DNA of 64,000 nucleotides from Gnetum montanum (lineage: Eukaryota; Plantae; Gnetophyta). A model generated the notes under the pieces. That model saw only the letters and a list, made by a program, of their open reading frames with translations. It did not search any database and was not told where the DNA came from. The first letter of the stretch is position 1, and each line of letters begins with the position of its first letter. Position numbers and translations under genes: made by a program. The DNA lies in NCBI GenBank assembly GCA_015680685.1, contig MNCI01002237.1, positions 72,648 to 136,647 on the forward strand. Direction: 5' to 3'. Below, in pieces: positions 6,586-43,732 of the stretch.

Positions 6586-6603
6586 TGGCACCATTGCCAA
6601 GGA
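6586..6603 (+). promoter_or_regulatory. PBS complementary to tRNA-Asp (Athila-type)
   Basis: TGGCACCATTGCCAAGGA is a G>A decayed form of TGGCGCCGTTGCCGGGGA. Confidence 0.8.
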
Positions 6604-6724
6604 CTAAGTGTTTGTGCGCCGAATAGAACATAAGGGATATCACTCACATTGTTTTGAGCCTTAACGAACCTTCGGGTTAATCAAAAGAAAATTTATATAA
6701 TAGTAAATTAGCATACTGATAAAA

Positions 6725-12783: not shown

Positions 12784-13685
12784 CTGATGCTTCAAATGAA
12801 GGATTAAGATGCATCCTCATGCAAGAAGGACATGTCATCTCCTATTCTTCTTAACACTTAAAGAATCATAAAGTTAGATATCCTATGCATAACATGGAGT
12901 TAGCAACTATTATTTTTCCACTAAAGATATGGAGATATTATTTATTTAGAGAGAAAATAGCCTTGTGAATAGACCATAAGAGTTTGCAATATCTTATGAC
13001 CTAGCCATAATTAAATTTCCAGCAAAGAAGATGGATTGAATTACTTGTAGACTTTGATTTTGATATTAAATATCATCCTAGAAAAGAAAATGTCATGGTA
13101 TATGCACTTAGTAGATAAATTAGAAGGATAAATAGCTTGATCATGTAATTAAGCCTAATGGATGAGATTATTGAAGAACAAAGGTCAAACACATGGTGCT
13201 AAGAAAAGCTTTAAAATTAGGTCAAATTTTCCCCAATTATTTACTAAAGGGAGATAAAGGTGAGTTAAGATTCAAAGGTAGATTATTTGTATCCAAAGTG
13301 GTAAGAAAAAAACTATTGGAAGAGGCTCATACCAATAGATATTAGATGCATCCTAGGGATGATAAAGTATTTCAAAAATTGAGAAGACAATATTGATGTT
13401 CTAAGATGAAGCAAGAGATAGCTAAATTTGTTTTTGAATGTTTAATTTGTCAACAAGTTAAAGCAAAACATCAAAAACCAAGAGGATTACTTCATGTTCA
13501 TGACATACCATAATGGAAGTGGGAGGTTATTAGCATGGACTTCATTTTAGAATTACCAAAGATAAAAAGGAAACATGTTGCTATACTATTATTGGCAGAT
13601 TCACTAACAAAATCTTCTCTTTTTTTTTTGCTACCCATTCCACCTCAACTACTAAGGATATTACTAAGTTATTTATTAACAAGAT
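12784..13685 (+). pseudogene. Element A RNase H and integrase N-terminus
   Basis: DASNEGL..YPMHNMELA..DHKSLQY; HHCC zinc finger; WEVISMDFILELP. Confidence 0.9.
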
Positions 13686-14563
13686 TAATGAAGCATCATG
13701 GTTTGGCCACATTGACGGGATGTCATTGACACATCCTTATTGATAAGATCTCATTGACATGAGCCCATCAATGCAGGATTTGACCTATTGACGTGTACCC
13801 ATCAATGGGGCACCCTATTTTTGCCTATAAATATGCACCTTCCACCACATTTATGACATCAAGTCTCATAGTTACAATAAAGCTCTAGAAATTTCTCCAC
13901 TTGAAAGTTAGAATATTTTGTAAGTGCCCAAAGCAAGAGTCAAAGGGTGTATGGATCTTTATTCGAGCACTATTGTACTTGAGCACTTTAGTATGTGTAG
14001 TAATAAAGATAAGCTTTTTGATCAAACCTTGTAGAACATGGACTAGATTAATTATTTGTTTATGCATCTAATATTTTAAGCAATTTTCTTTAATGTGTTA
14101 AGTAATTAAAGTATTTAATTAAGATAAATTAAATACTAAACATAAGTACGACCACTTTAGGCATACATGTAATGCTTGGTAATCCCAGTAACACTTAATG
14201 ATTAGTAACCAAATAGTGTTATACATGTTTAGGATGTGTACAACAAGTGGGAATGGATGCTTATGTTAGGATTAGTTAAGTGTTAGTTACTTGTTAGATT
14301 AATTTAGCAATTAAATATCTTTATTCATTATTCTCTATTCTTAGTGACTTGGAACATAAAATAATAAAAATCATATACCTCAATTATACTTAACCATGCC
14401 CTTGTACTTACAAGTGTAACTAGGAAGACAACTATTACAATAGTTGATTCACATCTCACACTAGTGTGCATAGAAACCCCAAAAGTCCTTGGAATTCAAC
14501 TAGATTATGTGTAAATTCTTGTGATTCATATGGTTGGGTGTAGGGTCTACTCATTGCTCATCA
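13686..14563 (+). repeat. 5' LTR of C
   Basis: TAATGAA...CTCATCA; homologous to 41857-43732 once the solo-LTR insert is removed. Confidence 0.9.
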
Positions 14564-14719
14564 TTGATGCCATTACTAGGGACCTTTAGTTAGCTTCATG
14601 CACTTCTAGGACTTAGTGAAAATCATTCACATCATTGGATCAAACCTTAAAGTTGCAATCATTCTAAGACTAACAACAATTGTAAAAAAGCACACTATTA
14701 ATTTTTTTTCAAATTCAAA

Positions 14720-17700: not shown

Positions 17701-20700
17701 AATCTAAAATTGAAAAGTACTTATATGTAGTATCCACAAAACAAGAGGGTACCCAGTGGTTGATAGTTAATCCTTAAAGTAGCACACTTAGCATGGAACC
17801 AATTGAGAGCTTAACATGTGCCTATGTTAAGGGCATGAATGAATTAGAATAAGTTCATCACCAACTCTCTGATGTTGAACCAGATGACATCTATTGAGGA
17901 GAGTTAAATATCCTTAAAAATTTTAAGCAAGAGCCCCTAAAGTTGAAAACTCTACTTGCTGACATAGACTATGCTTTCCTAAAAAATGCCAAGGTGATGA
18001 TAATTAATTCTAACCTTGCTCTTGAATAGAAAAAGATGTTGTTGAAGGTGATCAAAAAATGGTCAACAACCTTTGCTTGTTCATATCATAAAATCACTAG
18101 GATTGATCTTAGAATATGTCAGCATCACATCTATATTGATCTATCCGTCAAGCCAAAGAGGTAGTCGTAGTGATGGTTGAACCCCAAGCTAAAGCATATC
18201 ATCAAAGAGGAAGTTGAATAACTCCTTCAGATATGGTTCATCTATCCAATTGCACATAGTGAGTGAGTTACTCCAGTTGTAATTGTGCTAAAGAAATATG
18301 GAAATTTAAGGGTGTGTATTGATTTTAAACTATTAAACAGGATGACCTACAAAGATCATTTTCCATTGCCATTTGCGGACCAGGTGTTGGACACCATTTC
18401 TGGGAATTTCTTCTATAGATTTCTATATGGTTATAATGGTTATAACCAAATTCAAATTTCACTGAATGATTAGGCCAAAACTATATTCACAAGGTCTTGG
18501 GGGACTTCTACATATCGAAAGATGCCATGTGGTTTGTGTAATGTCCCTACAACTTTCCAATACTTTGTCCTTAGCATTTTTCAATAGTAGATTGGTAGCA
18601 AGTGGAAGTATTCATGGATGACTTCTCCACATATGGTGCTATGTTTGAGTAGGCCCTAGAGCACCTTGAGAAAATTCTTAAAAGGTGTGTGGAGACCAAT
18701 CTTTAGCACAATTGGAAAAAGAGCCATTTGATGGTCTAGGAGGAAATTGTATTGGGACATAAAATTTGTCAAGAAAGGATTAAGGTGAACCCTAAAATGA
18801 TTAGGGTCATCCAAGAAATAACCCATTAGTCAGAAACCATTAAATATCTCTAGTCATTCCTTGGATACACTAGCTACTACCAAAAAATCATATAGAATTT
18901 CTCTAAGATTACTAAACCGTTAGTCGAGCTTACGAAGAAAGATGCTTCATTTTTATGGATCGAGGAATGTGATTAGGCATTCCAAAAACTCAAAGAAAAG
19001 CTTGTAGAAACTCTAATTTTACAAGTACCTAATTACTCTTGTCCATTTCACATCATGAAAAATGCATCAAACTATGCCTTAGGAGTAGTGCTTATGTAGT
19101 TGGACAATCAGAAACATCATTATTACATCCACTGTGCAAGCCAAAGCATTGTGGGTGCATAGCTCAACTACACCACGATGGAGAAAGAGATAATGGCAAT
19201 GGTGTATGCCTTAGAAATGCTTAGGCACTATGTGCTTGGATACAAGATCTTTATGCACATAATTCATAGTGCCATTTGCTTCTTCATGAACAAGTTGATG
19301 GTGAACCCCCATGTCATATGGTGGTTGGTGATCTTACAGGAGTTTGATCATACAATTGTAGATCGAAAGGAAACTAAGAATGTGATTACTAATCACTTGT
19401 CTTAGATACAATGGGACAACAAAGAGGAGGAGAGTCCATCTTTTGATCAATTTCTTGATGAACTCCTCTTTGTTGGTTCAATAAATGAACAAGTACCCAA
19501 TGAGCCTACATTGTAGGATTACATCCTTACTTATCTTCCCACTCAGGAGATGCCATAAGAGTTAGACCACTGAAAAAAAAACAATAGTTTCTTCATCAAG
19601 CCAAATGATTCATGAAGCTTAACGGACACCTTTATAAGGTATGCATTGATGGCCTGGTTCATTGGTGTGTTCTTGATGCCAATCAACTACAAGTTCTTCA
19701 AGATGTTCATGAGAGTTCACATTGGGACCACTATGTAGGAAGATGCATGACCATTAAGATCCTAATGAAAAGGTATTAATGGCCAACAATCTTTAGAGAC
19801 ATCCACAAATTTATCTACTCTTGTGAATGCTATCAATGAGATGATGAGATGACTACTCAAATGGAGGGGCCTCAGCAATGGATCTAACCACTAGAACCCT
19901 TTGATATCTAGGGAATTAACTTCATGGATCCCATCACACCCATGTCAAATAAAAGGGTATACATTATAGTCACTATTAACTATTGTACAAAATGGATAGA
20001 TGTAGTAACCATCACTGATTGTACATCTTTCACTACTACTTGGTTTTTCCAACAAAATGTTGTAAATAGGTTTGGGGTGCCACATGCACTGATTTCTAAC
20101 AATGGTACTTATTTTACAAGTTGTACTTTTTGCAAGCTTATGCAATTCTTTGGGGTTGAGCATATATTAACACCACCTTACCACTTCCAAGCCAACAATT
20201 AAGCAAAGGTTACCAATAGGAAGATCAGTAAGATCTTAATTAGAACAATAAGAAAATATAGGAGAGACTGGAGCACAAAAATCAACAATTCCCTCTAGGC
20301 ATATTGCTCAACATGAAAACTTCCTATAGGCTATTCTCCCTATGAGTTGGTGTACAAAAAATTACCAACTCTTCTAGTCCAATCCAACCTCTATATACTT
20401 TCAATAGCCTGTAGCCTTAACCTTGACCTTAGCCTAGCATAAAAAGAAGGATTGATTAACCTTAATGTATTAGATGAGAATTGATTGGTGGCCCTATCAT
20501 TAAATGAACTACACAAGGCATTCAACAAAAAAAATCTATGACCTCAAAATTAGAAAAGTGAAATTTCAACTTGGATACAAGGTCCACTACTAGAACCCCA
20601 CACATGTGCCATAACGAATCAAGTTCCAAACATTATGGGAAGGCCCTTACATAATTTATGAAATATTTCCTTTTGGGGCCATGTTGATCTACAAACTTGA

Positions 20701-20790
20701 GCCCAAACAACAAGAAATTAGTCAACATGCAATAACTTAAACCTTTCCATGAGCTTAAGAAAACTAGTGCAAGAAACACCTCATTAAATG
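14720..20790 (+). pseudogene. C gag-pol (gag, PR, RT, RNase H, INT), degenerate
   Basis: Gag collinear with B; LRVCIDFKLLNRMTYKDHFPLPF (RT); EKEIMAMVYALEMLRHY (RH); RFGVPHALISNNGTYF (INT). Confidence 0.92.
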
Positions 20791-21209
20791 GACAACCTCA
20801 CTTAATTTTTTGGATCTTCTCCTTTCAACTCAATCATAGGGGAGATGGCCATCCATGTTAATCACTTAAGTGACTCTTTAGTTTTTATAGTTTTTATACA
20901 CCTTCTTTGTTTTTCTACTTTTTTATTTTACACTTTATGTTGTTTTTCCCAATTTTTATTTACAACGTCATTACTATATTTTATATTTCTTTAACAATTT
21001 TTAATTTCTTTTATATTTTATTTTATTTTTGTGTGCACTTTTCTTCTCATTTCCTAATAAAGTGCTTTATTGCCAGTAAGACACAATAATGTTGTAGTTG
21101 TTTGCTAATGGTGGTTTGTACTTAATATTTTCAATTACTAATGTTTGATCTATTTTTGAGTTTTGATGACTGATGACTAAGACATGGTTTTCTTTTCATG
21201 GAATAGACA

Positions 21210-22795
21210 TGAAATAGCACCAAATTTGGGTCACTGTGTCTCAACTACAAATTTGTCTAAGTGTTGACACAAGGCAAATTTTTTTAAAATGTTGGGCCTA
21301 TGCTCTCCACCACTAAGGCTACACTCTAGAGCATAGTCAACATAGTCTAAAAAAAACTCTATATTTGCAAGATCTTTCAAAGTGTTGATGGCAGCTACAA
21401 ATTTCACTAAGTGTCAAGCAAGAAGCTATCAAGCTTGGTTGGCATGGAAGAAATAGTTTGGCAAATTTTCTAACTACTATGACTATGCTCCCTATTATGC
21501 TCTAGAGTGTAGTCAACATAGTCTGCATGAAGACACTAGTTCTATAAAAAAAATTTAACTATTGAGGCTATGCTCTCACTGCTAGGACCACACTCTAGAG
21601 CGTAGTCAGCATAGTCAGTACTTGAACACATATTATTGCAAAATTTGTCTAACTGGTAGGACTACGCTCTAAAGCGTAGTCAGTGTAGTCATGCAAAACT
21701 ACCTCCATAAGCCTCTAGAACTTAGAATTGGGCTTCATCTTAGCTCCAACACAACTTCAATAGGAAAGATCAACAAATTTTCTCTCTTTTGCCACCCAAT
21801 TTGCCCCTAAATTGTACTTATGCTCAACACCACTCAAGAGAGTAGACATCATAGGCCCGAAGTGTAGTCTTCAAAACTACACTATTTTACACTATTTTTA
21901 GGTACATTGTGGTCTGTTTGACCCTTCCACATGTAGTTTGGATAGCATAGTCATAGTTTGGTAGTCTTGCAAAGTCCATTGAAGCACACTAGTAGAACAC
22001 CATTTTCTTCATTAGGAGCATAGTTGGGTGCAACGTAGTCCCAACTACCCCTCTACCATGAGGCACCCAATCTAGAATTCACAGTAACCCTAATCCTATA
22101 AATACCCCCAATTCTCTATGTTTTATGGGTTGGCAATTCTTGCATTCAATTGGCAAAATTTCATTCTGAGCATTCTCACATTCAAGCACACTTGGCATTT
22201 TAGTAGACTCTAGATTGACACGTGACATTGTTGCACACCACCTAGCACATCATAGGCCACCGCAACCCATGGGACACCACAATAGCCAACTCAGTAGGCA
22301 TATACTTCATGGAAAATGTTAGTCTTCATAGCCTAAAGATCCTAAGACTATGACTACACTACCTATTGCACCTATTTATACATCGTGTACCTCTTCACCT
22401 TTTCTTGCAGTTAACTATGCTCCCCTCATTTGGGGTGGTGTTTCTTTCTCTCTTGCTCATCTCCCTTGAATTTTAGCATTTTCCCTTACATTTTAACATT
22501 CTACCTGCATTTTTTGCTATTTTCTACACATACTTGCATGTTTGCACTTTCGTTTTTCACCAGAAACCTTAACTACGCTCACCCTTGTTAACATCATGAA
22601 TGTCACGAACACCATGCAAACCCTTAGCATTCATTTTGGCATTGCACTCCTTAAGTCCTAGTTTGACTGACAAGATCATTCTAGGCACCGTGTATCCATT
22701 TCTTGTAGGCCATCACATGGATGCAAGGTCAAACTGTGTGCATTGCAAACCTTTCAGTGTACCATTTTAGCCTCTAACATTTTTTTTTCACTACA
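21210..22795 (+). repeat. 5' LTR of D
   Basis: Homologous to 36521-38177; TATA CCTATAAATACCC ~22097. Confidence 0.9.
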
Positions 22796-22801
22796 ATTTT
22801 T

Positions 22802-22818
22802 TGGTGCTAGAAGGAGGG
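22802..22818 (+). promoter_or_regulatory. PBS complementary to tRNA-Asn
   Basis: TGGTGCTAGAAGGAGGG matches the plant tRNA-Asn 3' end (…CCCUCCUUCUAGCGCCA) with one CpG decay. Confidence 0.8.
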
Positions 22819-23289
22819 CCAATGCCATTTCCTTTTACGACCTTCATTGGTCATTATCTTATGTGCTTTCTCCACCACTATTACTAGCTCTAGGCTAGCA
22901 TAGACTCAATAGCCCTATGTACCTACCATGACAATAGCTAGATCTAAAGATAGCATAGGAGTTATCTACAAACTAGTGAGTGTAGACTAGACCTTATCGT
23001 TGGCTCCCCTAGAACCCTACTTGACAACTCCTAGAGCTCACGCCTTATACTTTACTAAATTCTAGGCACTCGGGAGAGTGTAGCTACCTCTCAGTGTAGA
23101 GAGAATAGTTGGCTTTAGCATAGTGAGCATAGTCCTAGAGTTAGCCATTTTTCAATAGTTTTACACTCACCATTTTTTTGTAAGCTTTACACTTAGCTAT
23201 TTTTACAGTAGCCTTCATACTTAGCTATTTTTTCTATCATTTTTTCCTATATTTGGCAACTAGTAGTCTTTCACATTTCTCCCTTTGCA

Positions 23290-26200
23290 TCATGAACCCT
23301 AGGTAGCCTTTGACTTTGGCTTTAACCATGGTTGTTGTTCAGCGCACTTAGCAAGAAATCCAAATTAACCATCCTACCAGTCCAACCATGGTAGGATAAA
23401 GGTAATCCCTTAGGCTATGCATCCTACCTTCTAAGTCCATAGTGTTGAATGATGTGTAGTATAACTTCATTTGTGCAAAGCTCTAGGTGGATCTATTCAT
23501 AGATCCCCAGGAAATGAAGGCCAAATGAAGCTATGGGCTCATACACCAAAACAGAAGGGAATACTTTACCTCTTCTATGGACTTCATTCCACTCATAGAG
23601 CCTTATCAGTGGATGCTTAATTAGCTCATTCGAGCCAATGGACATGAGGTGGGGACAAAGTATGAGGAACCCCTACAGGAGGAGCAAGATGAGTTTGAAG
23701 CTTGTTCAGAGCATGAGAACTTGTTCCACACCTCCTTTCAACTAGCAAACCCTAGCTTGGTTTTCTCATGCTCTCATCCATCCATCTTCCTAGAGACAAT
23801 TATATCCCCAATGTCATCTTGGAGGTCCACACCAGTGGGTTGCACTAGACCTAGTACATGTTCTAGGATGTCGTACATCTTGCTAGCCTACCCTTCAAAA
23901 TCCCATCACAACTTGTGCAAACCTCCCTACTTGCAACTATCATGTTGATACAACCCTATGTGCACATTGTGCATATTTCTCTATCACAAGAGACTTAGGC
24001 ACCGTACATTCCACCTGTCATGTTGACACCCTTTAGAACAACCAAACCCACAAACATGTGGTGGGAACCAACTACTGTACCTATGGCATGGCCCACACAA
24101 TAAGCATCGCATGTGTCCTTACAATGCATAGCCAAGTCATGGGTCGCCTAAATAGCATAGTAGGAGCACAATCATCATAGCCCGTTGCAACCTCCCTGAA
24201 CTTGAATCAAGCATTCCAGCTCATCTAGAATCTGATAGAGGAGGTTAAGTGGCTCAAGGCTTCCTCCTTTGAAATGGTTCATGTGATGGATTTCTACCAA
24301 GATGATCTGATAAGTCTTGTAGTTCCATTACTAACTCTACCTGCCAGGGTCCCACTATCCCAATTCATCAAATAAAATTAATTCTTACTTGGTGATCTTC
24401 CAATCTGAATGCCTTCTACTATAAGCATGGACACATGCTATTATTCATGTGTTTTCCATGTCCTTAACTAGCAAGGCACTAGATTGGTAGTGCATGCTCC
24501 CTAAGGCCTTCATCTCTTCTTTGGAAAATTTGCTTAGCCAATTCACCACATGCTTCAAGTATAACTTGAAGCCTAAGGAAACCCTAGACTAGCAAATGTA
24601 AATTAAGTAAGGTCACCTAAAACCCATGCAAAAAATCATAAAACACTAGAGTGCATCACTCAACAAAATCTATTAGCCCATTGCAAAAACACACATGTTT
24701 GCGATTTTCAATGGTGCAATGAACAACTTTATTAAGTTGAAGCTGCATTACCTAGCCCCACAATCCTTAAGATAAGCATTTGCTCAAACCAAGAGCATTC
24801 AAGATGTTGTAAAGGCCAACAAAGACCTAGCCTATATGGCCTACAAGGACTTGCATGCCAAAAATGACAAGTACAAGGGCAAATAGGCAACCACAATTGT
24901 AGCAATAGTGGCCAATGAGGCCAAGCCAACCAACACCAAACCAACAACCAAGCCATACAAGGCCCTGACCAATAACAAGGCTTCTAGCTCTAGCACTATG
25001 GCAAGTAATTGGCCTACATCATCGATAGTCATAGGGCAAGCTACCCAAAGGCCAAACTATGAGTGCAAGGATTACTCAAAGTGCACACCATTGCCCATTA
25101 TGATATCCAAACTCTTGGATAAACTGCTTAAAGCTTAATGCATCTAGTATAAGAAAATGTTTGAGGATGCTCACAAGTGCCATGATAAGTACTGCAAGCT
25201 TCTTAAGAATTCCTCAGCTACAACACCAAACAAGCCCCCAATCCCTAAGCATTTTAAGCTAAACCATTTTACCACTATCACCAATTGCCTGGCCATGATA
25301 TAAACTTTTACATGGATTTGAACGATGATGTAAAATGCATGATTAATTGGGTTGAGTTGGTTCTTGATGCAACCAACCTAATTTGCCCCCAAAATAAATC
25401 AATGGGGGTCTATAAGGATCCTCTAAATGCGAGTAGTGTAGGGTATACCATCAATGCTATCAGCATTGATGATAACTCAAAATTGATGCAAGAGCCATTC
25501 ATGGTTTGTGTGCCCTCTAGTAGCGCAGGGGCCCCCTTGACATCAACTAGTTCGAGGATTCCTTTCATTGTTAGAGGACCACCTCGGGCACCTACAATAC
25601 CCTTTTTGGTTAGGATCCCATAACACGTTGCAGTAGTAATAGCCTAGTCACCCTTTGTTGTCAAGATGCCACAACATGCAAACTCCTCCCTTACTTAGAG
25701 TTTAGTGGTGGGCCATGAATCAATCCTCACCTACCTAATGGATCATCCTATAGGCAATGCTAGCAGAACATCTAGGTGGAAACCAATGAGGCCTAATGAG
25801 TGTCTCACCAATAAAATGGTTAGGGAGCACCATCAGAAAAGGGCACTAGGCCCACTAAAGCCCATCCCTTGTCCTCTATTCCCATGGCCAAATCAACCAA
25901 GAAGGCCATCATAAGCAACCAACAATAGAGCATTGAGGCTTCAAAACCTGAAAGGCAAGTAAAGCCTAAATCTTCTCCATGAGAGATTCGTCTCTTAGGC
26001 TGCATAGAGGAGGTGAATGCTAAACAAAATAGTAGATAGCAACAAAGACTTCCTTGATGTGTTGGCCTAGGTTAAATAGGCATTAAAATAAAAGAACACA
26101 ATGTTAAGCCTGTATGACCTAATCATAACCTCCTTTGCCCATCGTAAAGCATTGGTCCACATGTTGACCTCCATTCCTATTACAAAGGACATCCTGGTAG

Positions 26201-26973
26201 ATGAAAAATCCATCCATGCTATGATGTTGCCTCCTACATCACAAGAATTGAGTTGAACAACCCTAACATTCTATGATGAGGTGATCAAGGTTAACCTTGA
26301 GAAGGGTTAGGTCATTACTACATCAATGTTCATTACAATTTTTATGGGGCAATGTAGAATCCATAGGTTGCATGTTGATGATGCAGCAACAACTAATTTC
26401 ATCCCATATGATATCATTGACAAGATGGGTCTTGCTAACCAAATCAAACCCATCAAGACAACATGCCTAAAATCCTTTAATGGATCATGCATTTTCATAA
26501 GGGGAATAGTCACAATAGCCTTTGTGATAGGGAAGAAATTCCCCACCACTATAGGATTCATAGTAATTGAGGAGATGCTAGGTTTGAACTTGATCTTGGG
26601 CAGGCCTTGGCTAGCCCAACCAAGGGTTGTCTCCTCTCCAATCCACCAAGAAATCCACCTTCCCTATGAAGGTGGTGAGATTATCATTTACGGTAACAAC
26701 CAACCCCTTTATCCATCAACAACAGTGACACAGAACAAGGGTCAAAGATGGAGTTCTCTAATGACATGCCTCTTTTGAAGGATGAGGGTGAAACATGTGA
26801 GGAAAACCAAACTGAGGAGCCAAAAGGAGCCAAGAAGCTCTTGAAGGATGCTTTGTGCGTAGAAGTGTCCTTCAACATAACTGATGAAGGTCAAGTCTAG
26901 TACCACATAGTACCATCTAGGCCCTACATTCCCCATAATCCACATTAGATTAGGAAGCAACTATGTGACTAAG
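23290..26973 (+). pseudogene. D gag and protease, highly degenerate
   Basis: LPARVPLSQFIK gag-like motif; YHQLPGHDINF Tat-type knuckle ~25275; LHVDDAATTNFIP...LILGRPWLAQPRVVSSPIHQ protease. Confidence 0.75.
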
Positions 26974-27249
26974 GTATCCCCTTAGTCCAATATGCACTAG
27001 GTGCCTACCTACCCCACACTTCTACATACCTTGCCTGCTTGCATTTTGTTTATGCATTTACATTTAGCTTGGTTGTTTGCATTTCACATTGTTCGCTTTA
27101 TTACACATATTTTTTTTGTTTGTGCATTTTTTCTTAGTTAATTTCTATGCTTTTTAGTTTACTTTTTAGTAGTTATTAGCATACACATGAAAAACATCAA
27201 AATACATAAAAAATCATAAAAATTTAAACCACAAAAACTATGGTCCAAA

Positions 27250-27447
27250 AAGGCCTTAAACTGGCACATAGCCCACCATGGCCTAAAACTAGCAACACTT
27301 TTCCTTCCAATGCATGGCTCAAATTGGCCTTAAACTACCATTGGGGCCTAGAATGGCCTAAAACTACTAATACATGCTATCAACACATGTGGCCCAGAAT
27401 GGTCTAAAACTATCATTGTGGCCCAAAATGGCCTTAAACTAGCATGG
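27250..27447 (+). repeat. Degenerate tandem array of GGCCT(T/A)AAACT (~6 copies)
   Basis: Direct reading; related copies at 32038-32110. Confidence 0.75.
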
Positions 27448-27655
27448 GATATGCAATGGCCTAGTCACATTAATTCATCACATTACTAGCATTAAACTCA
27501 TAGTAAATAATCACAAAATCCATACACTTCATATAGCAAAACAATTCATTACATCTCATGTAAATAATAGTACATAGCATGGTCTTATACACCATGTGCC
27601 AAAAAATACACAAAATGCAAAAAACGCCCAATAGCAGGGCTACATTAGAATATGC

Positions 27656-30600
27656 TCAACTAGTGGTACTAGGTGGGGGTGGAGGTGCTTCCTCCTCCAG
27701 TGTGCTATTGGGGCCAGTAGCATTACCTTGTACCTACAACAACAACAAAAAAACAAGCCTATAAGCAAATGTACAATATACAAGCTAAGATAAAACCTAA
27801 AAAAGCATAAAACCAATACAAATAAGTAACCTAAGAGTGTCCCACATTGATCATGTGTGGAGGTAAACTATCAAGGTCCTCCTCCAAGTGTTGGAGGATC
27901 TCAACCTCAGATAGCCATGTCTAGTCCTCTTGGCCAAATTCAATCCCTACAAGGATCTTACCTTTTTCCATGGAGGTCCATGTAGGTGGGTCCATGGAAA
28001 ATGTAGTAGATGAAGCCTCTCCTAAGAGCATAATAATCTACCTCTCTGGGGAACCACTAACCACTATATGATAAGCGAACAACTCATAAGCATGTCTCTT
28101 GCTGGTCACCTCAAGAAACATCTCATGGTGGCAACGTTCCACAGACTCTTCTTTGAGCTACTAAAGATATGCATCTTACTCATGCTTATAGTGGTGTTTA
28201 TGGTTCATTTGCATCTATCCCCACCTGTGCACCTTGGTATGAAATATTTTCTAGTCTTGGTTATTTTGGACAAGCTGATTCATCCATAACCACTACTAAG
28301 TGATCTCACAAGTGGCCTTGTTTTTGCCATGGATGGCTAATCAATACATGGAATAATCAATATTTGTAGTCTACTAGGTACTATCTCCCCATGACTGAGC
28401 TTCTAGGAAGTCATATTAGGACTAAAGGTCCTTGATCTTTGTTTCTTGGCTCATCATCCTCTCCTGAAGTTTATGCATGCATTTCCATAGGTGCTCATTC
28501 AAACACCTAAAGATTCATAATGCTTTCACGTAGGAAAGTGTGCACTTTCTAATTACCTTATATATATATGATAAGGCACTTGCTCTACTTTAGGAAGGAA
28601 CTTGGGAATAACATCTACTTTAGCCACCTAGCTTGGATCCCAGCAAAGCTTAGAACCTGTTAGTATACAACAAGAAAATCAACCTTAGCCACAAACTCTA
28701 CATTAAATCGGTAAAGCAACATAATTAAAACAACTTCATATGCATACCAAGCTTAGGATCTACCTACTATAGGTGGTTAACCATGTCCTCCATGAAGGAA
28801 AACTTATTGGTCGTTTGTACCCATGGCTTCATATAGTAGGTAGATGTAGACAGTGGATTGCTAGCAGGCTCATTTGGGGCTGTGATCCAATAATGTAATA
28901 AGAAAAAACTAAATAGATAAAGATGCAAGAGGAAAAGAGAAACAATAGATGGCAACCTAAGACACTTACCTAGTAAGCCCTCAAGTGTGGGACTAGGGAG
29001 GTCTCCCAACTACACACCATTAAAGAGGCTATCAAAATCACCCCCATCAGGGTGGAGTAGCCCCTCCTCCAATTACTAGAGGATATTTGTGGCCTTTTGT
29101 AGCTCCTTCCTATGTGCTTCCCCCTCCTCAACTTGAGGAGGGGCCACTTCTACTATTGTTGTCACCACTACTTTGGTAGCCCTCTCTACTAATTTACAAA
29201 CATAACATGTTAGCATTAGTATAACATAGCAAGAAAACATAAAAGTATAAACATAAAAAATACAAAATGAATGCATCTAGTAATTTACATATACTAACCT
29301 ACAACCTCTATGTATAATTTGGGGATCTTAAGGCAAATATTCTTAATGCCTGCCTATCCAACCTTAAGAATAGCCTCCTCTATGGGACATGACATCTTGA
29401 TCTTTGCCTTGGACAATCGCACCATTTCCACAATATAGCAATTAGCCTTATTCATTTTCCCTATAACAACTAAGAGACCCTTTCCTATGCTATTACATGA
29501 ATAGTGTGACTACCCCAAGACACCTTTGGTTGTTACTGAATATGACTCATTGATATCCTCTGGGGGGATCCTATGCACAAGTGGTCATGAACATGTGCTT
29601 AACCTAAGGCTTAGATAGTTGTTCATAGTCTTGCACCACCCATCACCCACTATCACAACCACCAAAAGCTCTGTGAACCTTTGTAAATACCATGCGAAGA
29701 ACGTGAAGTGTATGTGAGACCTTGCAACAAAATATCCTGGTTAGCCCCAAGCAACAATGTTTTGGTGATGACTCTTGCAACCTTCACCACTAAGTGTAAC
29801 CACATCATCACACTAAAACCCTACAGCAAGAATTCTAGGAATTCATGTGCCCCTGGCTAGAACTACACTACCTAATAACCCACTAGCATATCTAGTGTAG
29901 GTGTGTTTGGCATAGGCTCGCTCATGCAGCAGAGAATGCCAACAAGCTTCATAACAACTAGGATGGGCTTTAGTAACACCCTACAACCATAAAGCAATAA
30001 ATGAAGCATTCGTATATACTAGATGCAATTTTAACAAAAAATATTAAAATTAAACTTAGCAAAATTAGCATAACATAGCATAGACTAGCAAAAAGTATCC
30101 TAGTGCCCCCTAGGGCCTTGTGGGTATAGGACATCAACACATACATTTGATGTGGCTAGTACTCACTGAGGTACCACATCTTTCACATAGGATTAGCATC
30201 TCATTTTACATTTTGCATGATTATTATCATTGCCATTATCATGGTTTGCATGTTTTAGGTAGTTTAATATCATTATTATTTGCACGTTTAGCATTGTTGC
30301 ATGCTTTAGCATTGTTGGCATTTTCACATTTTTCAAGTCTAGCTTTAAGAACAACTTATAAATTTTCCCAAACTTTTTCTAACTCCAGATACCGTAGTCT
30401 AAAATGCTACAAATTTTTCTAACTCTGGGTTACCTATGGGAGTGTAGTCCAAAAATACAACAAATTTTTCTAACTTTGGATCACCCTAACTACACTCTAG
30501 AACATTGTAGAGCATAGTCCCAAACTGCAAAAGAAATTCTAACTATTGACTATGCTCTCCATGGAGTGTAGTCCAAAAAAAAACTAAATTTTGGATGGGC

Positions 30601-31790
30601 TATTTTGAAGAATACTTGGCATCAACTATGCCTCAAAAATAGTAGTGTAGCCTTGGCCATGGCTAGTGAACCAAGGTTTGGCTACTGCCTCAGCACTTTC
30701 TCTACTCACCGCACCTTGCCACGACACTACACACTACTCACCTACCTCTCTAGGCACTACGCCCTACCATGGTGTTGCTTACCATCACTTTCACTGCACC
30801 CTGTGCTATCAACCCCAACCATAGTCATGATACCTATGTCCACAACCATAGCAACACCCCCATGCCATGTAGAAAACATAGTAGTAATGCATCCTTGGTT
30901 TACACATCTCCCCTGCAGCCCCTACTGTGCCATGGCCCAACACACTCACAACCCCTATGACCCCCAATGCACTTAACCCTTCCCTATGCCCTCTTTTTCC
31001 AAAAAATTAATGAAGAAAACATTGGAGGACAAACCCTTGCCACAACCCTATCTTGTGGTGGGCCACTCACAGCCACCATCTACACCTACATCCCTACCCC
31101 ATGTAAAACAAATTTCACTAAACAAATAAAAACATGGAAAAAACACTCTACCGTGGCCTCAACACTGTGGGTGATGGCTCTTGTTAGCCATCGCCAAGAT
31201 CCAAGTCCCTTTCCCTATGCTACAAAAAATTTAAAACCAAAAAAATTTTGTTTAAAGAATTTGCACATGATCCTTGTGGGAGTTGGTAGTCCCCCCTCCC
31301 ATCTGCAGTTGCACCATCCATTACCACAACTACAAAATCCCTTAAACCCTCATGTGCTCGCACATGCCCAATCCCCACAAGCAAAACCCTCATGTTCTAA
31401 AATCCAAAAAAAAAACCCTTCCCCACATGCACATCCTCCCTAGCCACTACAGTTGAAACAACCATAGTGACGATGACCCTTGTCATGGCAAGGCATCACC
31501 AACACCCAAAGCCCCAAACCCTCTATGCATAAAAAAGTAAATCAATGCAAAAATGGCAAAATGGAAGAGCATAGTTAGGGTACTTGGCGGATGGTGGCAT
31601 CCTCCATCCCTCCACGTGTGCCCGTGGTAGGTGTCCTAGTGCCTGTGCTCCCTCATCTACATTCACCAATATAGGGTATTGGCATCCACTTTAGTGAGTC
31701 ATCTTGGAAGCAACTACACTCTTCACATATTGCACTATGCTTTGAAACTTTGCATTTTAAACTTTTAAAAATGATAGACTTACCCAAGGT
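27656..31790 (-). pseudogene. Multi-exon antisense accessory gene of D, unknown product (decayed)
   Basis: Minus-strand exons ~29299-29980 and ~27829-28656 stay in one frame with only scattered stops (mostly TAG/TGA); short T-rich GT-AG introns; minus-strand TATAAAAG ~31800; last exon VQGNATGPNSTLEEEAPPPPPSTTS*. Confidence 0.7.
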
Positions 31791-32213
31791 GAAATGTGCT
31801 TTTATACCCCCATGGACAACCTAATGATTTACCAACCCTGGGACTATGATCAACCTTATCTATGCAATGGAGAGCATAGTTGGTCTAGAGCATAGTTGGA
31901 TGATAGTGTAGTTAGCATAGACTTAGAAAAATTTTAAATTTTTCTCATTACCTAGTGAACACCTAGTCTAACTCTACATCCTAAGCACTCCCAGCCTTGC
32001 CCAAAATGATGCATCTAGCACATACCATAGTATGCTAAGACCTTAAACTAGCATTCCATGGTCTGGTAAGACCTTAAACTGGTATCCATAATCTACTGAG
32101 GCTTAAAACTAAAACCAATGCACTTACCTTTCTTTAACAATGAATGCACATACTTAGGAAAATTTTTATTCCATTCCTTTCTTCATTTATGCATATTGAC
32201 TTCATTAAGACAG

Positions 32214-35200
32214 GTGTAGCTTAACGTTTTTCTAATTCTTTTTATGGGATTATCGCAAGAATATAACATGACTATGTGTGAGCATCTTCAATCACCTTTG
32301 GTCCTAACTAGGTCTCATGGTGATCTCACATGACACATTGATCCACAATGCCTAGACCTTGAGCTTATAATCTACGATGAATACGCAACATTTATAGAGG
32401 CATTACTAGATTAGTCAGAGCATGTAGTTAAGGCTGAAGATCTAGAGGTAGGTGATGTCACTGAGGATCCCTTTATTGAAATCCTTGTATCAATGCCTAA
32501 TGATGAGGCGAAAGCATTGAAACTTAGATTCTTGCTAGAGCCTCAACATGCCCAGAACATTGCTAAAGTGCTCAACGATAACATTAAGGCATTTGCATGG
32601 TCTTACGAAGACATGCCAGGCCTAGATCTTCATGTAGTTCAACATAACATAATCCTCAATCCCAGCATAAAACCAATTAAGAGAAAGTGCATAAGGTTAG
32701 GCTTGAGGTGGTATTAGTAGTCCATGATGAAATCACTAAACTCTATAAAGCTAGTTTCATCTAGGCCATTAACTACGCAGATTGGATCTCCAACATCATG
32801 GCTGTACCCATGAAAAATGGAAGTATATGCATTTGTAGAGACTTTTGGGACCTGAACAAGGTGACCATTAAAGACAATTTTCCATTTCCTAGCATTTTTC
32901 AATTGGTCGATACTAGAGTTCGTCATGCCTTGTTATCCTTCATGGATAGATCTCAAGTTACAACCAAATTTAGATCAACCCAGAGAACTAGCTCAATACT
33001 ACCTTTATGACCCCTTGAGGTACATTTTGTTACACCATGATGCCCTTCAAACTTAAGGCCATGGAAGAAACTTATCAACATGTCATGACTTACATTTTAG
33101 TAATTACATGTTGAATTTACTCAATGATTACATTGATGACATAGCAGTTAAGTCCAAAGTAGCACACAACCATGCAAATATCTTGGACCTTGTACTTAAA
33201 CATTGTCTAAAACACAAACTTAGGTTAAATCCCAAGAAATATGTTTTTAGTGTCAAGATGGACCACATTCTCAATTTCATAGTATCCAAAGCATACGTGT
33301 AAACCCCGATAAAATTAAGGCCATTATCACTAGCTAACCTTAAGGAGCTATGAGGGTTGTAGGGTAGATTGGAATTTATATGTAGGTTTATTACATGGTT
33401 GACCAAGAAGTTGTAGCTAATGCAACATTTGCTCAAAAGAGGAGTCCACTTTAAGTGGACTGCTCAATGCCAAGAGGCATTTGACAACCTTAAATAGGAG
33501 CTCACTCAACTTTCAATGGTCTACCCTTCGTAAGGAGATAAACCCTTCTACATCTACCTTGCTACCTCTAACATGTCCATCACTTTTCTACTTTGTCAAA
33601 AGCGAGATGATGGCATAGAGGTCTCGGTATACTACTTAAGCTATGCATTGGTTGCCTATGAAGAAAAGTATAATGATGTGGAAAAAATTGTCTTGCATTG
33701 GTCTTTGCCCTCAAGAAGTGGAGACACTATCTTTTCCACAATTACATCAACATCATCTGTAAGAGTAACATACTCTGAGTAATCATCATGGACATTTACA
33801 AGAGTAGTTTCATTGCATGATGGAAGGCAATAACAATGGATTTTGACCTACATTATGTTGCACAAGCCTTAACCAAAGGTCAAGCTATAGCTACATAACT
33901 TATGGTTTCACCCATCAACAGTCAAGCAACAATAGATATGAAATTTCTAGATGAGCATGTTAGTAGTGTAAGTTAAGTGCCTGACAACTTTGATGCACTC
34001 TTGCACTTTGATGATGCTTCAACCTCTCAAGGGGGTAGTGCCACTACCATTATCACATTCCCCTTTAGGGAGATCTAACCCTTCACATATTGTTTTGCAT
34101 TCCCATGCACTAACAATGTGGTAGAGTATGAAGGTCTCCTCTAGGGTATCCTAGTAGCTCGTGACTTACGAATCTAGAGCATAGCAATCTGAGGTGACTT
34201 GTAGTTGGTAGTGAACCAAGTTATAGAGGTTTATGATTATAAGGCCCAACATTTACAACCTTATTGTGGCCTGGAAAAGCACTTGCTTAAATAATTTGCA
34301 ACTACTAATGTTCAACATATCCCCTACAACAAAAATTCCATAGACGATGCATTAGCAAAATTAGCCTTAAGCATTGCACCTAACATGTTTCACGCATTGC
34401 CCACCTTGGTGGTGGATTGAACTATGCCTATCATGCAAACCACTAATATTGCATCCATAGGCACAATTAGCATGACCCACACAGTAGAGTGGTATGATGA
34501 CATTAATGCATACCTTCTAGAGGGTGAGCCTCTATAGCATCTAACCATTTCCCTAAAGGATGTAATGCAAAAATGATCGTGGTAGTATGTCATTGTGGAA
34601 GATGACACCTTGTGTTACAAATCCAATGCTGGGATACTATTGATCTTCATTACTGATGGTGAAGTGTAGACAATCATTGAACAAGTCCATGAGGAACTGT
34701 GTGAAGGCCACATAATGCCCAGGGCAATGGTGGAAAAAATTAAATGCTTGGGCTATTATTTTCCTTACATGAATTACGATTGCATCTCCAAGGTTAAAGC
34801 ATGTGACACATGTCAACAACATGACAACTTAATGCACGTGCCACCAACTGAGTTGCACACAATATAGATCATGTGGCCATTTCAACACTAGTGGTTGGAC
34901 ATCATTGGACCTATAATGCCTAGGTCCTCCATAGGGAATAGCTTCATTATAACCATAACAGAGTATTTTACCAAGTGGGTTGAAGCTATTCCCCTTAGGA
35001 AGACTATCTCACAACATGTTTGCAAATTTGTGTTCAATAACATAGTGACTCATTTTGATTTATCAATGACCATCATAATGGAAAATGGGCCACAATTTAG
35101 CAATGCTGAAACTAAGGCCTTTTGTGAAAGCTTTGATATTAAATAGTTTTTTTCATTGTCATACTATCCACAAGTGAATGGCTAAGTAGAGGCCACAAAC

Positions 35201-35730
35201 AAAGGCATTGTTAACCTTCTAAAGAAGATGCTCAATACTAGGAAATGGCAATGGCATGAGTAGTTATTCTACACACTCTAGGCCTACTACACAACACGTA
35301 GAATAACAACAGGTAAAATGCCATATAGTTTGGTTTATGGATCTGAAGCTATTTTGCCTCTTGAATTACAATTCCATCACTTCATGTCATCCTCTCAAGC
35401 TTCACTGAAGAGGCTTAAAATAATGAGTTGAGAATGATGAACCTCAATTCAATAGAGGAGGAGCACATGTAGATGCTTGATCACATCAAGTGGTACCAAG
35501 AAAAGAAATAGCAAAAACATTATCATAACTAGCACCAATGCTCGATCAAGAAAGGGCACCTAGTCTTCAAGGCCATTTGCAAACCCGCAAATAAATTTTC
35601 AACCAACTAGGAAGGGCCTTTCTTGGTCATCAAGGCCTATGAAAATGGAGCATTCAAGCTTACTGACCATGATGACAATGAACTTGCCAGTTCAATGAAC
35701 CACTCATATTTGAAGCTTTACTACACCTAG
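32214..35730 (+). pseudogene. D RT-RNase H-archaeal-type RNase H-integrase
   Basis: FAWSYEDMPGLD; YIDDIAVKS; aRH LHFDDAS..TNNVVEYEGLL; LDIIGPIMP..EYFTKWVEAIPL. Confidence 0.92.
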
Positions 35731-35774
35731 CACGTAACACCACATCTTGATAAAGCAAGGTAAGCATAAGTTCA

Positions 35775-35915
35775 ATATGATTATAAACTAGCATAGCAAC
35801 TCCACTATGACTATAAACTAGCACAACTCATCCACTATGACATTAAACTAGCATAGGTAGTCTAATATAACTATAAACTAGCATAGACTATTTGCCATGA
35901 CTATAAACTAGCACA
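35775..35915 (+). repeat. 3' UTR tandem repeat of D (~29 bp, TGACTATAAACTAGCA core, 5 copies)
   Basis: Direct reading; 3' UTR tandem repeats are typical of Tat/Ogre elements. Confidence 0.85.
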
Positions 35916-36520
35916 AATTGTCCTTGGGTCATGACAATAAAATAGCCTTTTGTAACTTGCATTTTGCAATGTGTAGAGCCCCAAAGTAGGTTTACCTCAC
36001 AATCAAAAAAGCAAAAAAAGATGCAAAAAAAAATAAAAGAAAAAAAAGAGCAAGGCAAAACATGTTTCCAAGCAAAATTAGCAAAGCTACAATTTTGTAA
36101 CTTGTCCAACCTTAAATCCTCAACAACCTTCTCATAAGCACTCCAACAAGAGGTCATAATTTTAGGGGCAAGCCATTCTAATTCCATGGATGCTGACTCT
36201 CTCACAAGCATTCTAACAAGAGGTCATTATTTTGATGACAACCTACCCTAGTGCCATGATCATCGTTAGCTATGCTAACTTTACAACTTGTAGTAGCACA
36301 CATTGTTTGTATTTCATTTTCCTTTTACCACATAGTACATTCCCTACACCCTTTGCCTCTAGCATACTACAAGCCTTTGCAGTCTTAAGCATGGTGCAAT
36401 GAAATCTAGTTGGGTACTAACAAGTAATGTCAGTTCCTGGCTTGCTATGATATGATGTTTTATCATTCTTTATTGACATCTCTTAGCCCACTCTTCCATA
36501 AATCAACAAAGAGGGGCCAA

Positions 36521-38177
36521 TGAAACACAACCAAATTTGGGTCATCACATCTCAACTAGAAATTTGTCTAAGTGTCAACATAAGGAAAATTTTTTCTAAG
36601 TGTTGGGCCTATACTCTCCACTGCTAGGACTATGCTCCAGAGTGTGGTCAGTGTAGTCTACAATAGAGGTCCAGATTTGAAAGATTTTTCTAAATGTCAA
36701 CAATAGCTACAAATTTTTCTAAGCATGGGAACTACACTCTGACTACCAAGACTATTCTTCAGAGTGTAGTTAGCACACCAATGGCCAATTTTGCAAATTT
36801 TCCTAAGTGTCAAGCCAAAAGTTGTTAAGCTTAGTTGGCATGGAAGAAATAGTTTTGCAAATTTTCTAAGTGTAACCACACTCCCTACTATGCTTTAGAA
36901 CATAGTTAGTGTAGTCTACATGGAGATACTAGTTTTGCAAAATCTTTCAAACTACTGAGGCTATGATCTCACTACTAGGACTATGCTTTAGAGTGTAGTT
37001 GGCACTAGAACACATTGTTTGCAAATTCTATCTAACGATTGGGACTATGCTCTAGAGTGTAGTCAATGTAGTCATGAAAAACTACCTATAGAAGCCTCCA
37101 AAACATAGCATTGGCCTTCATCTTAGCTCCAACACACATCCAACAAGCAAGATTAGCAAATTTTCTCTCTTTTTCCCCTTCATTTCCCTCCAAATTGTGC
37201 CTATGCTCAACACCACTCGAGAGAGTGGACAACGTAGTTATAGAGCATAGTCAAAAAAACTACACTATTTTGCATTGTTTTCAAGTACATTGCAGTTTGT
37301 TCAACACTTGCACATGCAGTTTGAGTCATGTAGTCATAGTATGGTAGTCTTGCAGAGTCCATTGAAGCATACCAGTAGAACACCATTTACTTCATTGGGA
37401 GCATTGTTGGGTGTAGTGTAGTCCCAACTATCCCTCTACCACATGGCAGCCGATCCACATTTCACAGCAATCCTAATCCTATAAATACCCTAGTGATCTA
37501 CATTCTATGGGTTGGCAATTCTTACATGCAATTGGCAAAACTACATGTTGAGCATTCTCACATCCAAGCACACTTGGCATTTCAGCAAACTCTAGATTGG
37601 CACTTGGCACCATCGCACACCACCTAGCACATCGAAAGCCACTGTAGCCCATAGGACACTACGAAAGCCAACCTAGTAGGCATAAACTTCATGGTGGATG
37701 TCATTCTTCATAGCATAGACATCCTAAGATGATGACTACATTGCCTTCTATGCCCATTTTTACACCACGTACTTGCTCATCTTTTCTTTTAGTTGACTAT
37801 GCTCCCCCCATTTGGGGTCATGCCACTTTCTCTTTCCCTTATCTCCTATGCATTTTTAGCATTTTCTCTTGCATTTTAGCATTCTACTTGAAGTTTTTGC
37901 TATTTTCTGCACATACTCATGCATTTGCACCTTCATTTTGCACTGGAAACCTTGACTATAGTCACCCTCATTAACATCATAAATGCCACAAACACTATGC
38001 AAACCCTTAGCATTCATTTTGGCATCGCACTCCATAAGTTACAATTCAATCAACAAGACCATTCTCAGCACCCCATCTCTATTTCTAGCAAGCTCTCACA
38101 TGGATGTGGGATCAAACTATGTGTACCACAAACCTCTCAATGTACCATTCGAGTCTTTGACATTTTTGGTCACTACA
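36521..38177 (+). repeat. 3' LTR of D
   Basis: Follows the PPT; homologous to 21210-22795. Confidence 0.9.
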
Positions 38178-39004
38178 AGGCAATGAGCCCATTTCATCCA
38201 CTTATTCACCAACTTTATGGTCTTTCTTGTTTTGGAAATATGAGGTCTCTTTTTCATTAATGAAACTTTAANTAAAAATTCATAAAAATATAAAATTTAG
38301 AAAAACATGATGGGAATTCAAAGCACATCCCCTAGACAAAATAATGGGCTACAAGCATTGGTTATGGGACTAGAAACACATGTTACCCATGCTTGAAGGT
38401 CCCCTCTAACTAGGGCCCTTTCTCACTTCTTACTTCTTTTTTCTTTCCAAATAAGGAATGGTGATTGATCTATCAAAGCATTCTTATGTCTCCAAGGGAT
38501 GGTCTGGTCTTAGAGTAGTGATGAAGAGTCACTGCAAGTGGCTAATTTTTATCTATACCGAGGGACTTTCATGGGTCATTTTAACATAAAATCCACAAGG
38601 GATTTCATGTGATCACGATTAGGAAATCCATTCCATATTTTCTCACATCCATTAATGCTTTTCATAATTCACCTCACTACTAGTTTCCATGTCTTATTCA
38701 ATGTCTTAGCTTGATGTGTTGGAGTTCTTAGGTAGATTCTTTTAGATTCAATCCTTAACTTTTCATAACCATTAATCAATTGTAGGATCCATGAACTCCT
38801 TATTTTGAATATATGTAAGGGTAAAAAGGGCATGAGCCTACTATGGNNNNNNNNNNNNNNNNNNNNNNNNNNNNNNNNNNNNNNNNNNNNNNNNNNNNNN
38901 NNNNNNNNNNNNNNNNNNNNNNNNNNNNNNNNNNNNNNNNNNNNNNNNNNNNNNNNNNNNNNNNNNNNNGAAATATTTAATATGGAAAATTTTCTAGAAT
39001 AGCT

Positions 39005-41856: not shown

Positions 41857-43732
41857 TGATGAAATGTCATGATTTGGCTACATTGATGAGATGCTATCAA
41901 TGTGACCTTGTCAATGGGATCTCGTCAACAAAGTGTTTGACCCATTGACATTTACTCATTGACAAGTCATCCTATTTTTTTCTATAAATGTGCACCTTCC
42001 ACTACATTTATGTCATCAAGTGTCATAGTTGCAGCAAAGCTCTAGTAGTTTTTCCACTTGAAATTTACAATATTTTCTAACTACCCACAATAGGAGTCAA
42101 AGGGTGTATGGATCTTTATTCGAGCACTGTTGTACCTAGGCACTTTAATGTGTGTGGCAATAAAGATGAGATTCTTGATCAAACCTTGCAACACTTGGAC
42201 TAGATTAATTATTTATTTAAGTATTTAATATCTTAAGCAATTTCATTTAATGTTTTAAATTATTAAAGTAGTTAATTAAGATAAATTAAATAGTAAACAT
42301 AAGTATGACCACTTCAAGCATACGTGTAACGCTTGGTGATGAGTGGCGAGGTACCCCTACACTCTACCATACGAATACGAGCGTACACGCGCGATCCGGT
42401 CGAACTCCGCAGACTAAATGCCTTAACGCCACAAGAAACACTTGGGGTTAATCGTTCGTTGTCTTCCCAGGCTTGCTTGTATGTGTCACGGTGTATGGTT
42501 AAGCAAGTCTGAGGTATGTGATTTTTTTGGTATTTTCGGCTTATCTTCTATGCTACCAGGAGAAAGGGTTGAGAAAACTAAACTAACTCTAACTAAGATC
42601 TAAGTCTAAATTAACTAGCGTCAGCATCCGTTCCCACTTGCCGGACACACCCTGAACTATGCAACTGCAGCTTACCAAACGCTAATCGTTACTGGGATCG
42701 CCACACGTAACGCAAGTGCTCGAAGTGGTCGTACTGAGGCACCTATTTAGCCTACGTGTGATAAGCAGCCGATTCCTTAGCCAGCCGTACACACCCGTGG
42801 GTGCTCGTAACTAAGTCGTACTTATCACACGATCTAGCCTAGCAATGAGCAGCCGATTCCTCAACTAGCCGTACACATTAGACCCGGGAGTTACCAAGCG
42901 CAGAATCCTGGAATACGCTACTGGGTTACCAAGCATCCAATGCTCGTAATTGAGTCGTACTCATGCATTGCGTCAAGCAGCCGATTCCTTGACTAGCCGT
43001 ACACGTCCGTAGACGCTCGTAATCAAGTCGTACTTGAACGCACTAGGAAAGCAGTAAATGAAAGCAATAAATGAAACCACGTGCTGCAAGGTTTATCCAA
43101 ACAAGTTCGTCTTTATTGCCGTACACAACTTGGGTTCAGGTTACAAGCTGCTCGAATAAAGAGCCGTTCACTCTAGGACTCCTACTGCGGGCACAGGGGA
43201 AAAATTCTAACTCTGGAGTGATCAATCTGCCAGAGCTTCGCTACACTAGCCAGGATTGGGAAATGAAGGGAGTGCCGCCTCTTATTTATAGATATGGCGG
43301 CGGGACGCGATATCGCGTACGCGATATCACAGGTGAAGACGCGATATCGCGGCCTAGTGAAAACCGCGTCTCATCACTTGGTAATCCCAGTAAGATTTAA
43401 CGTTTGGTAACCCAATAATGTTATACATGTTCAGGATGTGTACAACAAGTGGGAACGAATGCTTATGTTAAGATTAGTTAAGTGTTAGCTAGTTGTTTGA
43501 TTTATTTAGCAATTCAATACCTGTATTCATTATTCTTTATTCTTAGGCCTTAGTTACACTTAACCATCCTCTTGTACTTACAAGTATAATTGGAAAGAAA
43601 ATGATTACAATAGTTGATTCACCTCCTAAATCAGTGTATGTAGAAATCTAAAAGTCCTTGGAATTTGACCAAATTGTGCATAAATGCTTGTGATTCGTAT
43701 GGTTGAACATAGGGTCTACTCGCTGCTCATTA
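41857..43732 (+). repeat. 3' LTR of C, interrupted by solo LTR B'
   Basis: Starts TGATGAA after the PPT; ends CTCATTA before the TSD. Confidence 0.9.
42337..43376 (-). mobile_element. Solo LTR B' of the B family, antisense
   Basis: Reverse complement homologous to the B LTR; TGATGAG/CTCATCA ends; perfect TSD CTTGG (42332-42336/43377-43381); CpGs largely intact, so young. Confidence 0.95.

Follow-up and report, generated by a model that had tools for sequence, protein, structure and literature searches.

A decayed, once-coding antisense gene in the protease–reverse transcriptase interval of a Tat-type Ty3/Gypsy element from Gnetum montanum

What lies in the unusually long interval that separates the protease of a plant retrotransposon from its reverse transcriptase, and does it belong there? 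We asked this question about element D, a decayed Tat-type Ty3/Gypsy element found at positions 21210-38177 (plus strand) in a 64,000-nucleotide stretch of Gnetum montanum DNA (contig MNCI01002237.1, positions 72,648 to 136,647; hereafter the window). In D, the protease (PR) and the reverse transcriptase (RT) are 5.3 kb apart, and an initial annotation made from the letters alone had proposed that a spliced antisense gene is nested in this interval. According to our results, D is probably a decayed copy of a high-copy Tat family in which the 5.3-kb interval, likely an enlarged intron of the Ogre type, holds an antisense accessory gene that once coded for a protein and has five or more predicted exons, its product likely being a regulator of the element.

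The size of the interval sets D apart. The distance between anchor motifs in the protease and the RT is 5,996 nt in D, against 342-861 nt in 27 comparison loci (both motifs were present in 30 of 80 loci, 50 lacked one, and three stray values of 89 nt were dropped). In Ogre elements the mean length of the gap is 274 bp and some of the transcripts have it spliced out, according to the available text of PMC6317226; that of D is about 20 times longer. The features of the interval are as follows.

26974..32259, plus strand: predicted PR-RT intron with T-rich ends (donor 26974 or 27001, acceptor 32259, phase 1)
31780..31960, no strand assigned: second motif module, candidate distal promoter (minus-strand TATA at 31806), locally conserved in copies
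30330..30640, no strand assigned: U3-like module with five motif copies, candidate proximal promoter (minus-strand TATA-like site at 30360)
30167..30199, minus strand: tentative first coding exon, a candidate from sequence (ATG 30199, donor 30166)
29299..29980, minus strand: antisense exon E2, 227 codons, globular-looking domain (from frames and periodicity, as are E3 to E6)
28970..29188, minus strand: antisense exon E3, acidic and of low complexity (start 29188 or 29185, both in frame)
28748..28879, minus strand: antisense exon E4
27831..28656, minus strand: antisense exon E5, coiled-coil-like stretch (by eye) and acidic tail
27656..27733, minus strand: antisense last exon E6, proline-rich, ending in a stop
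27241..27448, plus strand: array of a repeat of about 29 nt, with the same motif at 32021-32082 and 35784-35912

Did the minus strand of this interval ever code for a protein? The codon-position periodicity of the exon blocks was highly significant (chi-square p = 4e-8). With a periodicity model trained on D's own pol, the modelled frame scored 13.3 whereas the other frames of the same strand scored -49.6 and -57.7; none of 1000 dinucleotide shuffles reached 13.3, even with the best frame chosen for each block, and the modelled frame was the best one in five of the six blocks. The LTRs (long terminal repeats), the 3' region and positions 30200-31780 scored negatively in all frames; no coding periodicity was found in 30200-31780, and no upstream exons were placed there. 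The periodicity score and the shuffle result thus indicate a formerly protein-coding segment whose product had 640 residues or more. The peptides quoted in the initial annotation were recovered in minus-strand frames. Its description of short, T-rich GT-AG introns holds for the four introns predicted between E2 and E6 (110, 90, 91 and 97 nt), which contain 45-59% T against 16-32% in the exons and all four of which join the exons in phase. Its long single-frame exons are to be qualified: the exons carry 28 stops, and E5 contains a frame break, which either falls within or close to the AT run around 28560-28570 or is explained by a 50-nt intron (28556-28507). Altogether, these data support the presence on the minus strand of a decayed, once-coding and intron-structured gene.

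The stops deserve attention because they bear on the origin of the gene. With 28 stops in 639 codons, the exons (4.4%) are less open than pol (2.7%) and more open than the other same-strand frames (6.0% and 10.6%); in E2, the density (6/227) is on a par with that of RT (7/233) and integrase (7/250). Such an excess over pol is in line with a passenger, that is, a host or DNA-transposon gene that landed backwards in the PR-RT intron of an ancestor of D and was amplified passively without serving the element, and a gene rich in introns is host-like as well. Nevertheless, 20 of the 28 stops are TAG, so the excess is mostly of the kind that methylation decay predicts.

Is the segment a property of the family or of this copy alone? 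DNA contigs from four runs (organisms A, B and C; three studies) were aligned to D at 80%, and the profile of summed contig depth, which is not a copy number, was alike in all four runs and the three organisms. In run X1 this depth was 1,000-4,400 over gag, 1,000-2,200 over the antisense exons and 6,100-23,000 over pol; the two promoter-like modules had depths of 480 and 387-1,955, and position 31821 one of about 900. That the antisense exons are as highly repeated as gag supports the view that the segment belongs to the family and not to this copy alone. One could imagine instead that the interval is a separate high-copy repeat inserted in this one copy of D; the depth of PR and pol is 3-10 times that of the interval, and short contigs cannot show linkage over 5 kb. 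However, related families are expected to raise the pol depth, contig pieces with 36-43 differences cross the protease/interval junction (runs X1 and X6), and about 20 contigs cover the RT side, lying over 32246 near the acceptor. Moreover, no loose contig end fell at either splice junction among the 24 listed (of more than 28,000), and no terminal repeats were detected at the borders of the interval, as the initial annotation had said. We consider an insertion of this kind highly improbable. The view that the interval is native to D is supported by the family-wide exon depth, by the divergent copies that cross the PR/interval junction and by a motif common to the interval and the LTRs (see below). 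One of ten interval indels lay in exons, where 3.7 were expected (binomial P = 0.07; 12 of 114 indels listed). In addition, many DNA contigs and RNA reads diverge at 26687, directly after the protease, and we read this as related families that share the protease and differ in the linker.

We then considered how pol could be expressed across such an interval. The plus-strand donors (26974 and 27001) and acceptors (32213 and 32259) proposed earlier are present at these positions. In the pol-trained periodicity, one and the same frame is chosen for the linker beyond 26720 and for the sequence beyond 32260; both donors are in phase 1 in this frame, in agreement with the acceptor at 32259. T makes up 51% of the sequence that follows the donor and 43% of that preceding the acceptor, whereas most of the interior has 26-27%. 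On sequence grounds, the interval appears consistent in phase with a predicted intron of the Ogre type. Alternatively, the antisense gene is real and the sense RNA retains the interval, the family being non-autonomous for pol or its pol coming from another RNA. The donors are indeed weak, no junction reads were seen, a 5.3-kb intron contrasts with the mean Ogre gap of 274 bp (PMC6317226, available text), and the pattern may be more complex, to judge from a second plus-strand donor and T-rich tract at 30171-30340. Yet both donors and the acceptor at 32259 are in phase with frames that the periodicity chose independently, both ends of the interval have T-rich tracts, and decay has gone no further in pol than elsewhere in D; we regard this alternative as improbable. 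The tract at 30171-30340 resembles the 5' intron end at 27001-27180 (15 of 1000 shuffles reach the score) and could represent either a second copy of the intron end or an additional splicing step.

Several results weigh against the proposal of an antisense gene in a spliced pol intron. Each of the two plus-strand donors matches only six of nine consensus positions. In E5, the modelled frame is not the most open one (15 stops against 11 in an alternative), and the deficit of stops, with P = 0.006 in the fixed frame, rises to P = 0.25 when the shuffles choose their best frame. None of the listed contigs spans the whole interval, and positions 30700-31485 are poorly common to the copies (depth 18-30 in run X1 against about 1,000-2,000 around). 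In four RNA runs, of which 2-26% of the reads were sampled, 63, 41, 49 and 341 reads fell on D, and none contained a splice junction on either strand; the splicing of both strands that the initial annotation had foreseen was thus sought and left no junction at this low depth. In run X11, the acceptor at 28657 is crossed by 20-25 unspliced reads with up to 13 starts; pre-mRNA or read-through from host introns would look alike. Finally, no true relative of the antisense protein was found by HMMER among 1.84 billion proteins, and a likeness to the PMD domain was not detected with a grass-only reference set.

The RNA reads were nearly all partial and none was 99% identical to D, so they come from other copies. 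In run X11, the first mates were mostly of plus orientation over 27370-29709, as antisense RNA would give, but in a library of unstated type, with the same bias over the protease bins and some peaks of two starts, and this was not used as evidence; in runs X14-X16 the RNA depth was below 1 in the interval. Among the exonic positions at which the RNA varied, 3 of 15 lay in stop codons of this copy, against about 0.7 expected (one read by hand). As to the poorly shared region 30700-31485, it is GC-rich with minus-strand T runs, and is perhaps a former CpG-rich leader.

What could have driven transcription of the antisense gene? The motif GAGYRTAGTY, counted on either strand, occurs 26 times in D and not once in the 47 kb of the window outside it: eight copies lie in each LTR, one in the leader and nine in the interval, where they form clusters at 30440-30573 and 31567-31897. 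The interval thus shares the motifs of the LTRs, as the initial annotation had noticed. The module of the first cluster aligns to the U3 of the LTR (0 of 300 shuffles reach the score), and both clusters are found upstream of a minus-strand TATA-like site (30360 and 31806, respectively), at a distance of 66-80 nt; the spacing is similar in the LTR, where the nearest motif copy is about 80 nt before the TATA. The TATA box and the leader donor that had been placed at about 31800 and 31780 were both located on the minus strand, as TATAAAA at 31806 and GTAAGT at 31783. Counted from the first T of the TATA box, this donor starts only 23 nt further on, at or before the usual transcription start site in plants; the two do not, therefore, fit together simply. 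Their pairing was thus not upheld, and there is a second candidate promoter at about 30360.

These modules also speak against a passenger, for both are made up of the LTR motif of D itself, and one of them aligns to U3. Furthermore, the repeats that flank the cassette match those after the integrase. This repeat of about 29-30 nt lies on both sides of the antisense cassette and after the integrase, and its copy number differs between family copies (DNA contigs). Such repeats might mark a move of the cassette from the 3' region by recombination.

The protein itself was then compared with known sequences and folds. It matched no Pfam family. A search of the PDB sequences gave five matches, all with E above 0.2, and a single-sequence AlphaFold model (pLDDT, the predicted local distance difference test, of 29) was too poor for a fold search. 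A word search with E5 confirmed none of 20 candidates (lengths 119-382), and 65 pattern matches of E2 in metagenome contigs yielded no confirmed one. One HMMER match, P0001, was rejected as a bacterial repeat protein with a repeat-inflated score. The order of short motifs in E2 resembles what we take to be that of the C-terminal half of PMD. For PMD (PF10536), there was no Pfam match, a local hidden Markov model (HMM) built from 124 grass-type PMDs was negative, hhalign gave a probability of 0.2, and in pairwise comparisons 172/300 and 91/300 shuffles reached the score; these tests have low power, with a decayed query and a grass-only reference set. Likewise, Transposase_28 gave no match in the interval or in the region of about 790 nt after the integrase; a weak score of E2 (3/200 shuffles) vanished with a 28-sequence model, and this candidate was discarded. 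That no homologue among the extra open reading frames (ORFs) of such elements was found is again in keeping with a passenger, but a conserved host gene would be expected to have relatives among the 1.84 billion proteins. On the whole, we think it unlikely that the gene is a mere passenger.

We therefore return to an accessory gene of the element itself, and propose the following scenario. The unspliced sense RNA would serve as the genome, be packaged and copied, and carry the cassette backwards; the minus-strand introns being invisible to the spliceosome on this RNA, the gene would keep them. Splicing would remove the whole cassette from the sense RNA and yield gag-PR-pol. For its transcription, the antisense gene would use a U3-like internal promoter of its own, as in Grande gene23. 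Its product, with a globular domain, an acidic linker and a coiled coil, would most likely fill the role of the PMD-coiled-coil extra ORF of Tat elements. D lacks such an ORF at both usual sites, has about 790 nt after the integrase, and its integrase falls on the PMD-bearing side of the tree described below. By analogy with VANC and PMD, the protein may work in the nucleus as a regulator of the element, perhaps through the repeated motif. One could go further: a distinct Tat lineage would have moved its accessory gene into the pol intron, one splicing choice would separate genome RNA from pol mRNA, and the nested, intron-rich antisense gene, under an LTR-derived promoter, would make an unrecognised protein that binds GAGYRTAGTY, the motif of the LTRs and of this promoter, in a VANC-like, self-targeting anti-silencing circuit. 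We offer this as a tentative extension that is rather doubtful as a whole. A spliced gene in the PR-RT gap would by design escape detection, such elements looking broken or nested to annotation pipelines. If the proposal is true, Tat accessory genes have a third possible location, and a retroelement can house a gene with several introns within its own regulatory intron. The motif common to the LTR and the internal promoter would offer a direct test of the role of accessory proteins that have long been unexplained.

To which group of elements does D belong? Its parts outside the interval are the following.

21210..38177, plus strand: element D, decayed Tat-type Ty3/Gypsy element
21205..21209, no strand: left target-site duplication of 5 bp, matching 38178-38182 at 4/5 positions
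21210..22795, plus strand: 5' LTR with TG...CA ends, eight copies of GAGYRTAGTY and a TATA at 22097
22802..22818, plus strand: putative primer-binding-site-like sequence
24490..25240 (approximate), plus strand: decayed gag-like coding stretch, from translation and periodicity
26092..26973, plus strand: protease plus linker, frame-shifted near 26720, from translation and periodicity
32260..35730, plus strand: decayed pol with RT, RNase H, additional RNase H and integrase, from Pfam
36508..36516, plus strand: polypurine tract, from sequence
36521..38177, plus strand: 3' LTR, the pair being found by self-comparison of the window

The LTRs are 79% identical over 1,570 aligned sites (Kimura two-parameter distance 0.25). 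All along D, the interval included, CG occurs at 0.1-0.2 and CAG/CTG at 0.3-0.7 of expectation, which indicates that the copy is old and decayed by methylation, the interval having aged no differently from the other parts. The gag-like stretch and the protease had no Pfam match; the protease gave tblastn matches to the protease regions of nine Tat loci. In pol, the families RVT_1, RT_RNaseH_2, RVT_3, Integrase_H2C2 and rve were found, and the additional, archaeal-type RNase H (RVT_3, E 3.9e-9) lies between RT_RNaseH and the integrase, an order (RT, RNase H, additional RNase H, integrase) that makes D a Tat element. The best integrase matches share the RVT_3 and rve architecture (identity to Logan protein P0002, 64%; Cryptomeria, 43%; angiosperms, 42%). 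P0002 seems to start with an unrelated Copia-like stretch (Pfam PF22936), as a chimeric or nested contig would, and no viral contigs bearing a D-like integrase or P0002 were found. In an integrase tree of 52 rows, midpoint-rooted and built without named lineage references, D and P0002 stand together on a long branch of their own; it falls on the same side as the PMD-bearing loci, and the Transposase_28-bearing loci are set apart from it (100/99). The additional RNase H between RNase H and integrase occurs in Tat clades of gymnosperms, ferns and hornworts too, as stated in the accessible parts of PMC13468544 and PMC10508981; this order is thus not diagnostic of Ogre, and the Ogre label for D is not established. 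Of the Tat/Ogre assignment made initially, the Tat part is sustained by RVT_3 and the integrase matches, whereas the Ogre part is not, given a gap some 20 times the Ogre mean and an integrase tree without named references. As for its surroundings, D sits in the 3' part of an older and more distant Gypsy element (about 13800-21200 and from 38178 onward in the window; RT at about 18040-19380, integrase at about 19620-20480), with related copies at 7600-9700 and 61000-64000. There is also a younger LTR pair at 5660-12786 (91% identity), with related LTR-like copies at 41900-43700.

How does this arrangement compare with known systems? Among the comparison loci, PMD matches were found in 11 and Transposase_28-like matches in 26, all on the minus strand (with one extra plus match for the latter) and at or beyond pol. 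Like D, Ogre has gag-PR split from RT, RNase H, additional RNase H and integrase by a predicted GT-AG intron, and a 5-bp target duplication. However, its gap, with a mean of 274 bp, holds no gene in the description available in PMC6317226, against 5.3 kb with a gene in D; moreover, the usual 5' and 3' sites are both free of an extra ORF in D, and the integrase branch of D does not resolve with any angiosperm group. Orchid Ogre-like elements are described, in the part of PMC9289625 available, as having a primer-binding site of the tRNA-Arg type. PMD with a coiled coil is the usual extra ORF of Tat lineages III-V (PMC4408406, in the available part). It resembles D's gene in being extra and antisense and in having what appears to be a globular domain ahead of a coiled coil (by eye in D); unlike D's, it is a long single ORF located after pol (antisense) or before gag (sense), as far as the same text goes. 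Retand, Grande, RIRE2 and pvRetro share with D an antisense accessory gene and flanking tandem repeats, and Grande gene23 is antisense with its own internal promoter, according to the excerpt of PMC7264820. In this group of elements the antisense ORF lies in a region of 2.9-6.6 kb between pol and the 3' LTR (PMC11963269, available part), which in D measures about 0.8 kb. The antisense ORF of Retand is of the Transposase_28 type, whereas D has neither a Transposase_28 match nor a long region after pol. In the fungal Gypsy element Boty of Botrytis, brtn is an antisense gene as in D, but it is located after pol and kinship of the proteins is unsupported. This gene is said to have introns. The likeness to VANC of VANDAL elements and to PMD would be a functional analogy only, between element-encoded factors and short repeated non-coding motifs: VANC is a DNA-transposon protein, PMD occurs in host proteins as well, and a sequence or fold link to D's protein is unsupported. 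VANC and PMD are themselves structurally alike, according to the accessible text of PMC13547354 and bioRxiv 2024.09.27.615353. In the literature covered, which did not extend to Steinbauerova 2008/2011, Zhao 2011 or the supplements of PMC6317226, we found no description of an extra gene between protease and RT. Antisense accessory genes are thus known after pol, and we see in D a new variant of this theme, new in the position of the gene and in its orphan protein.

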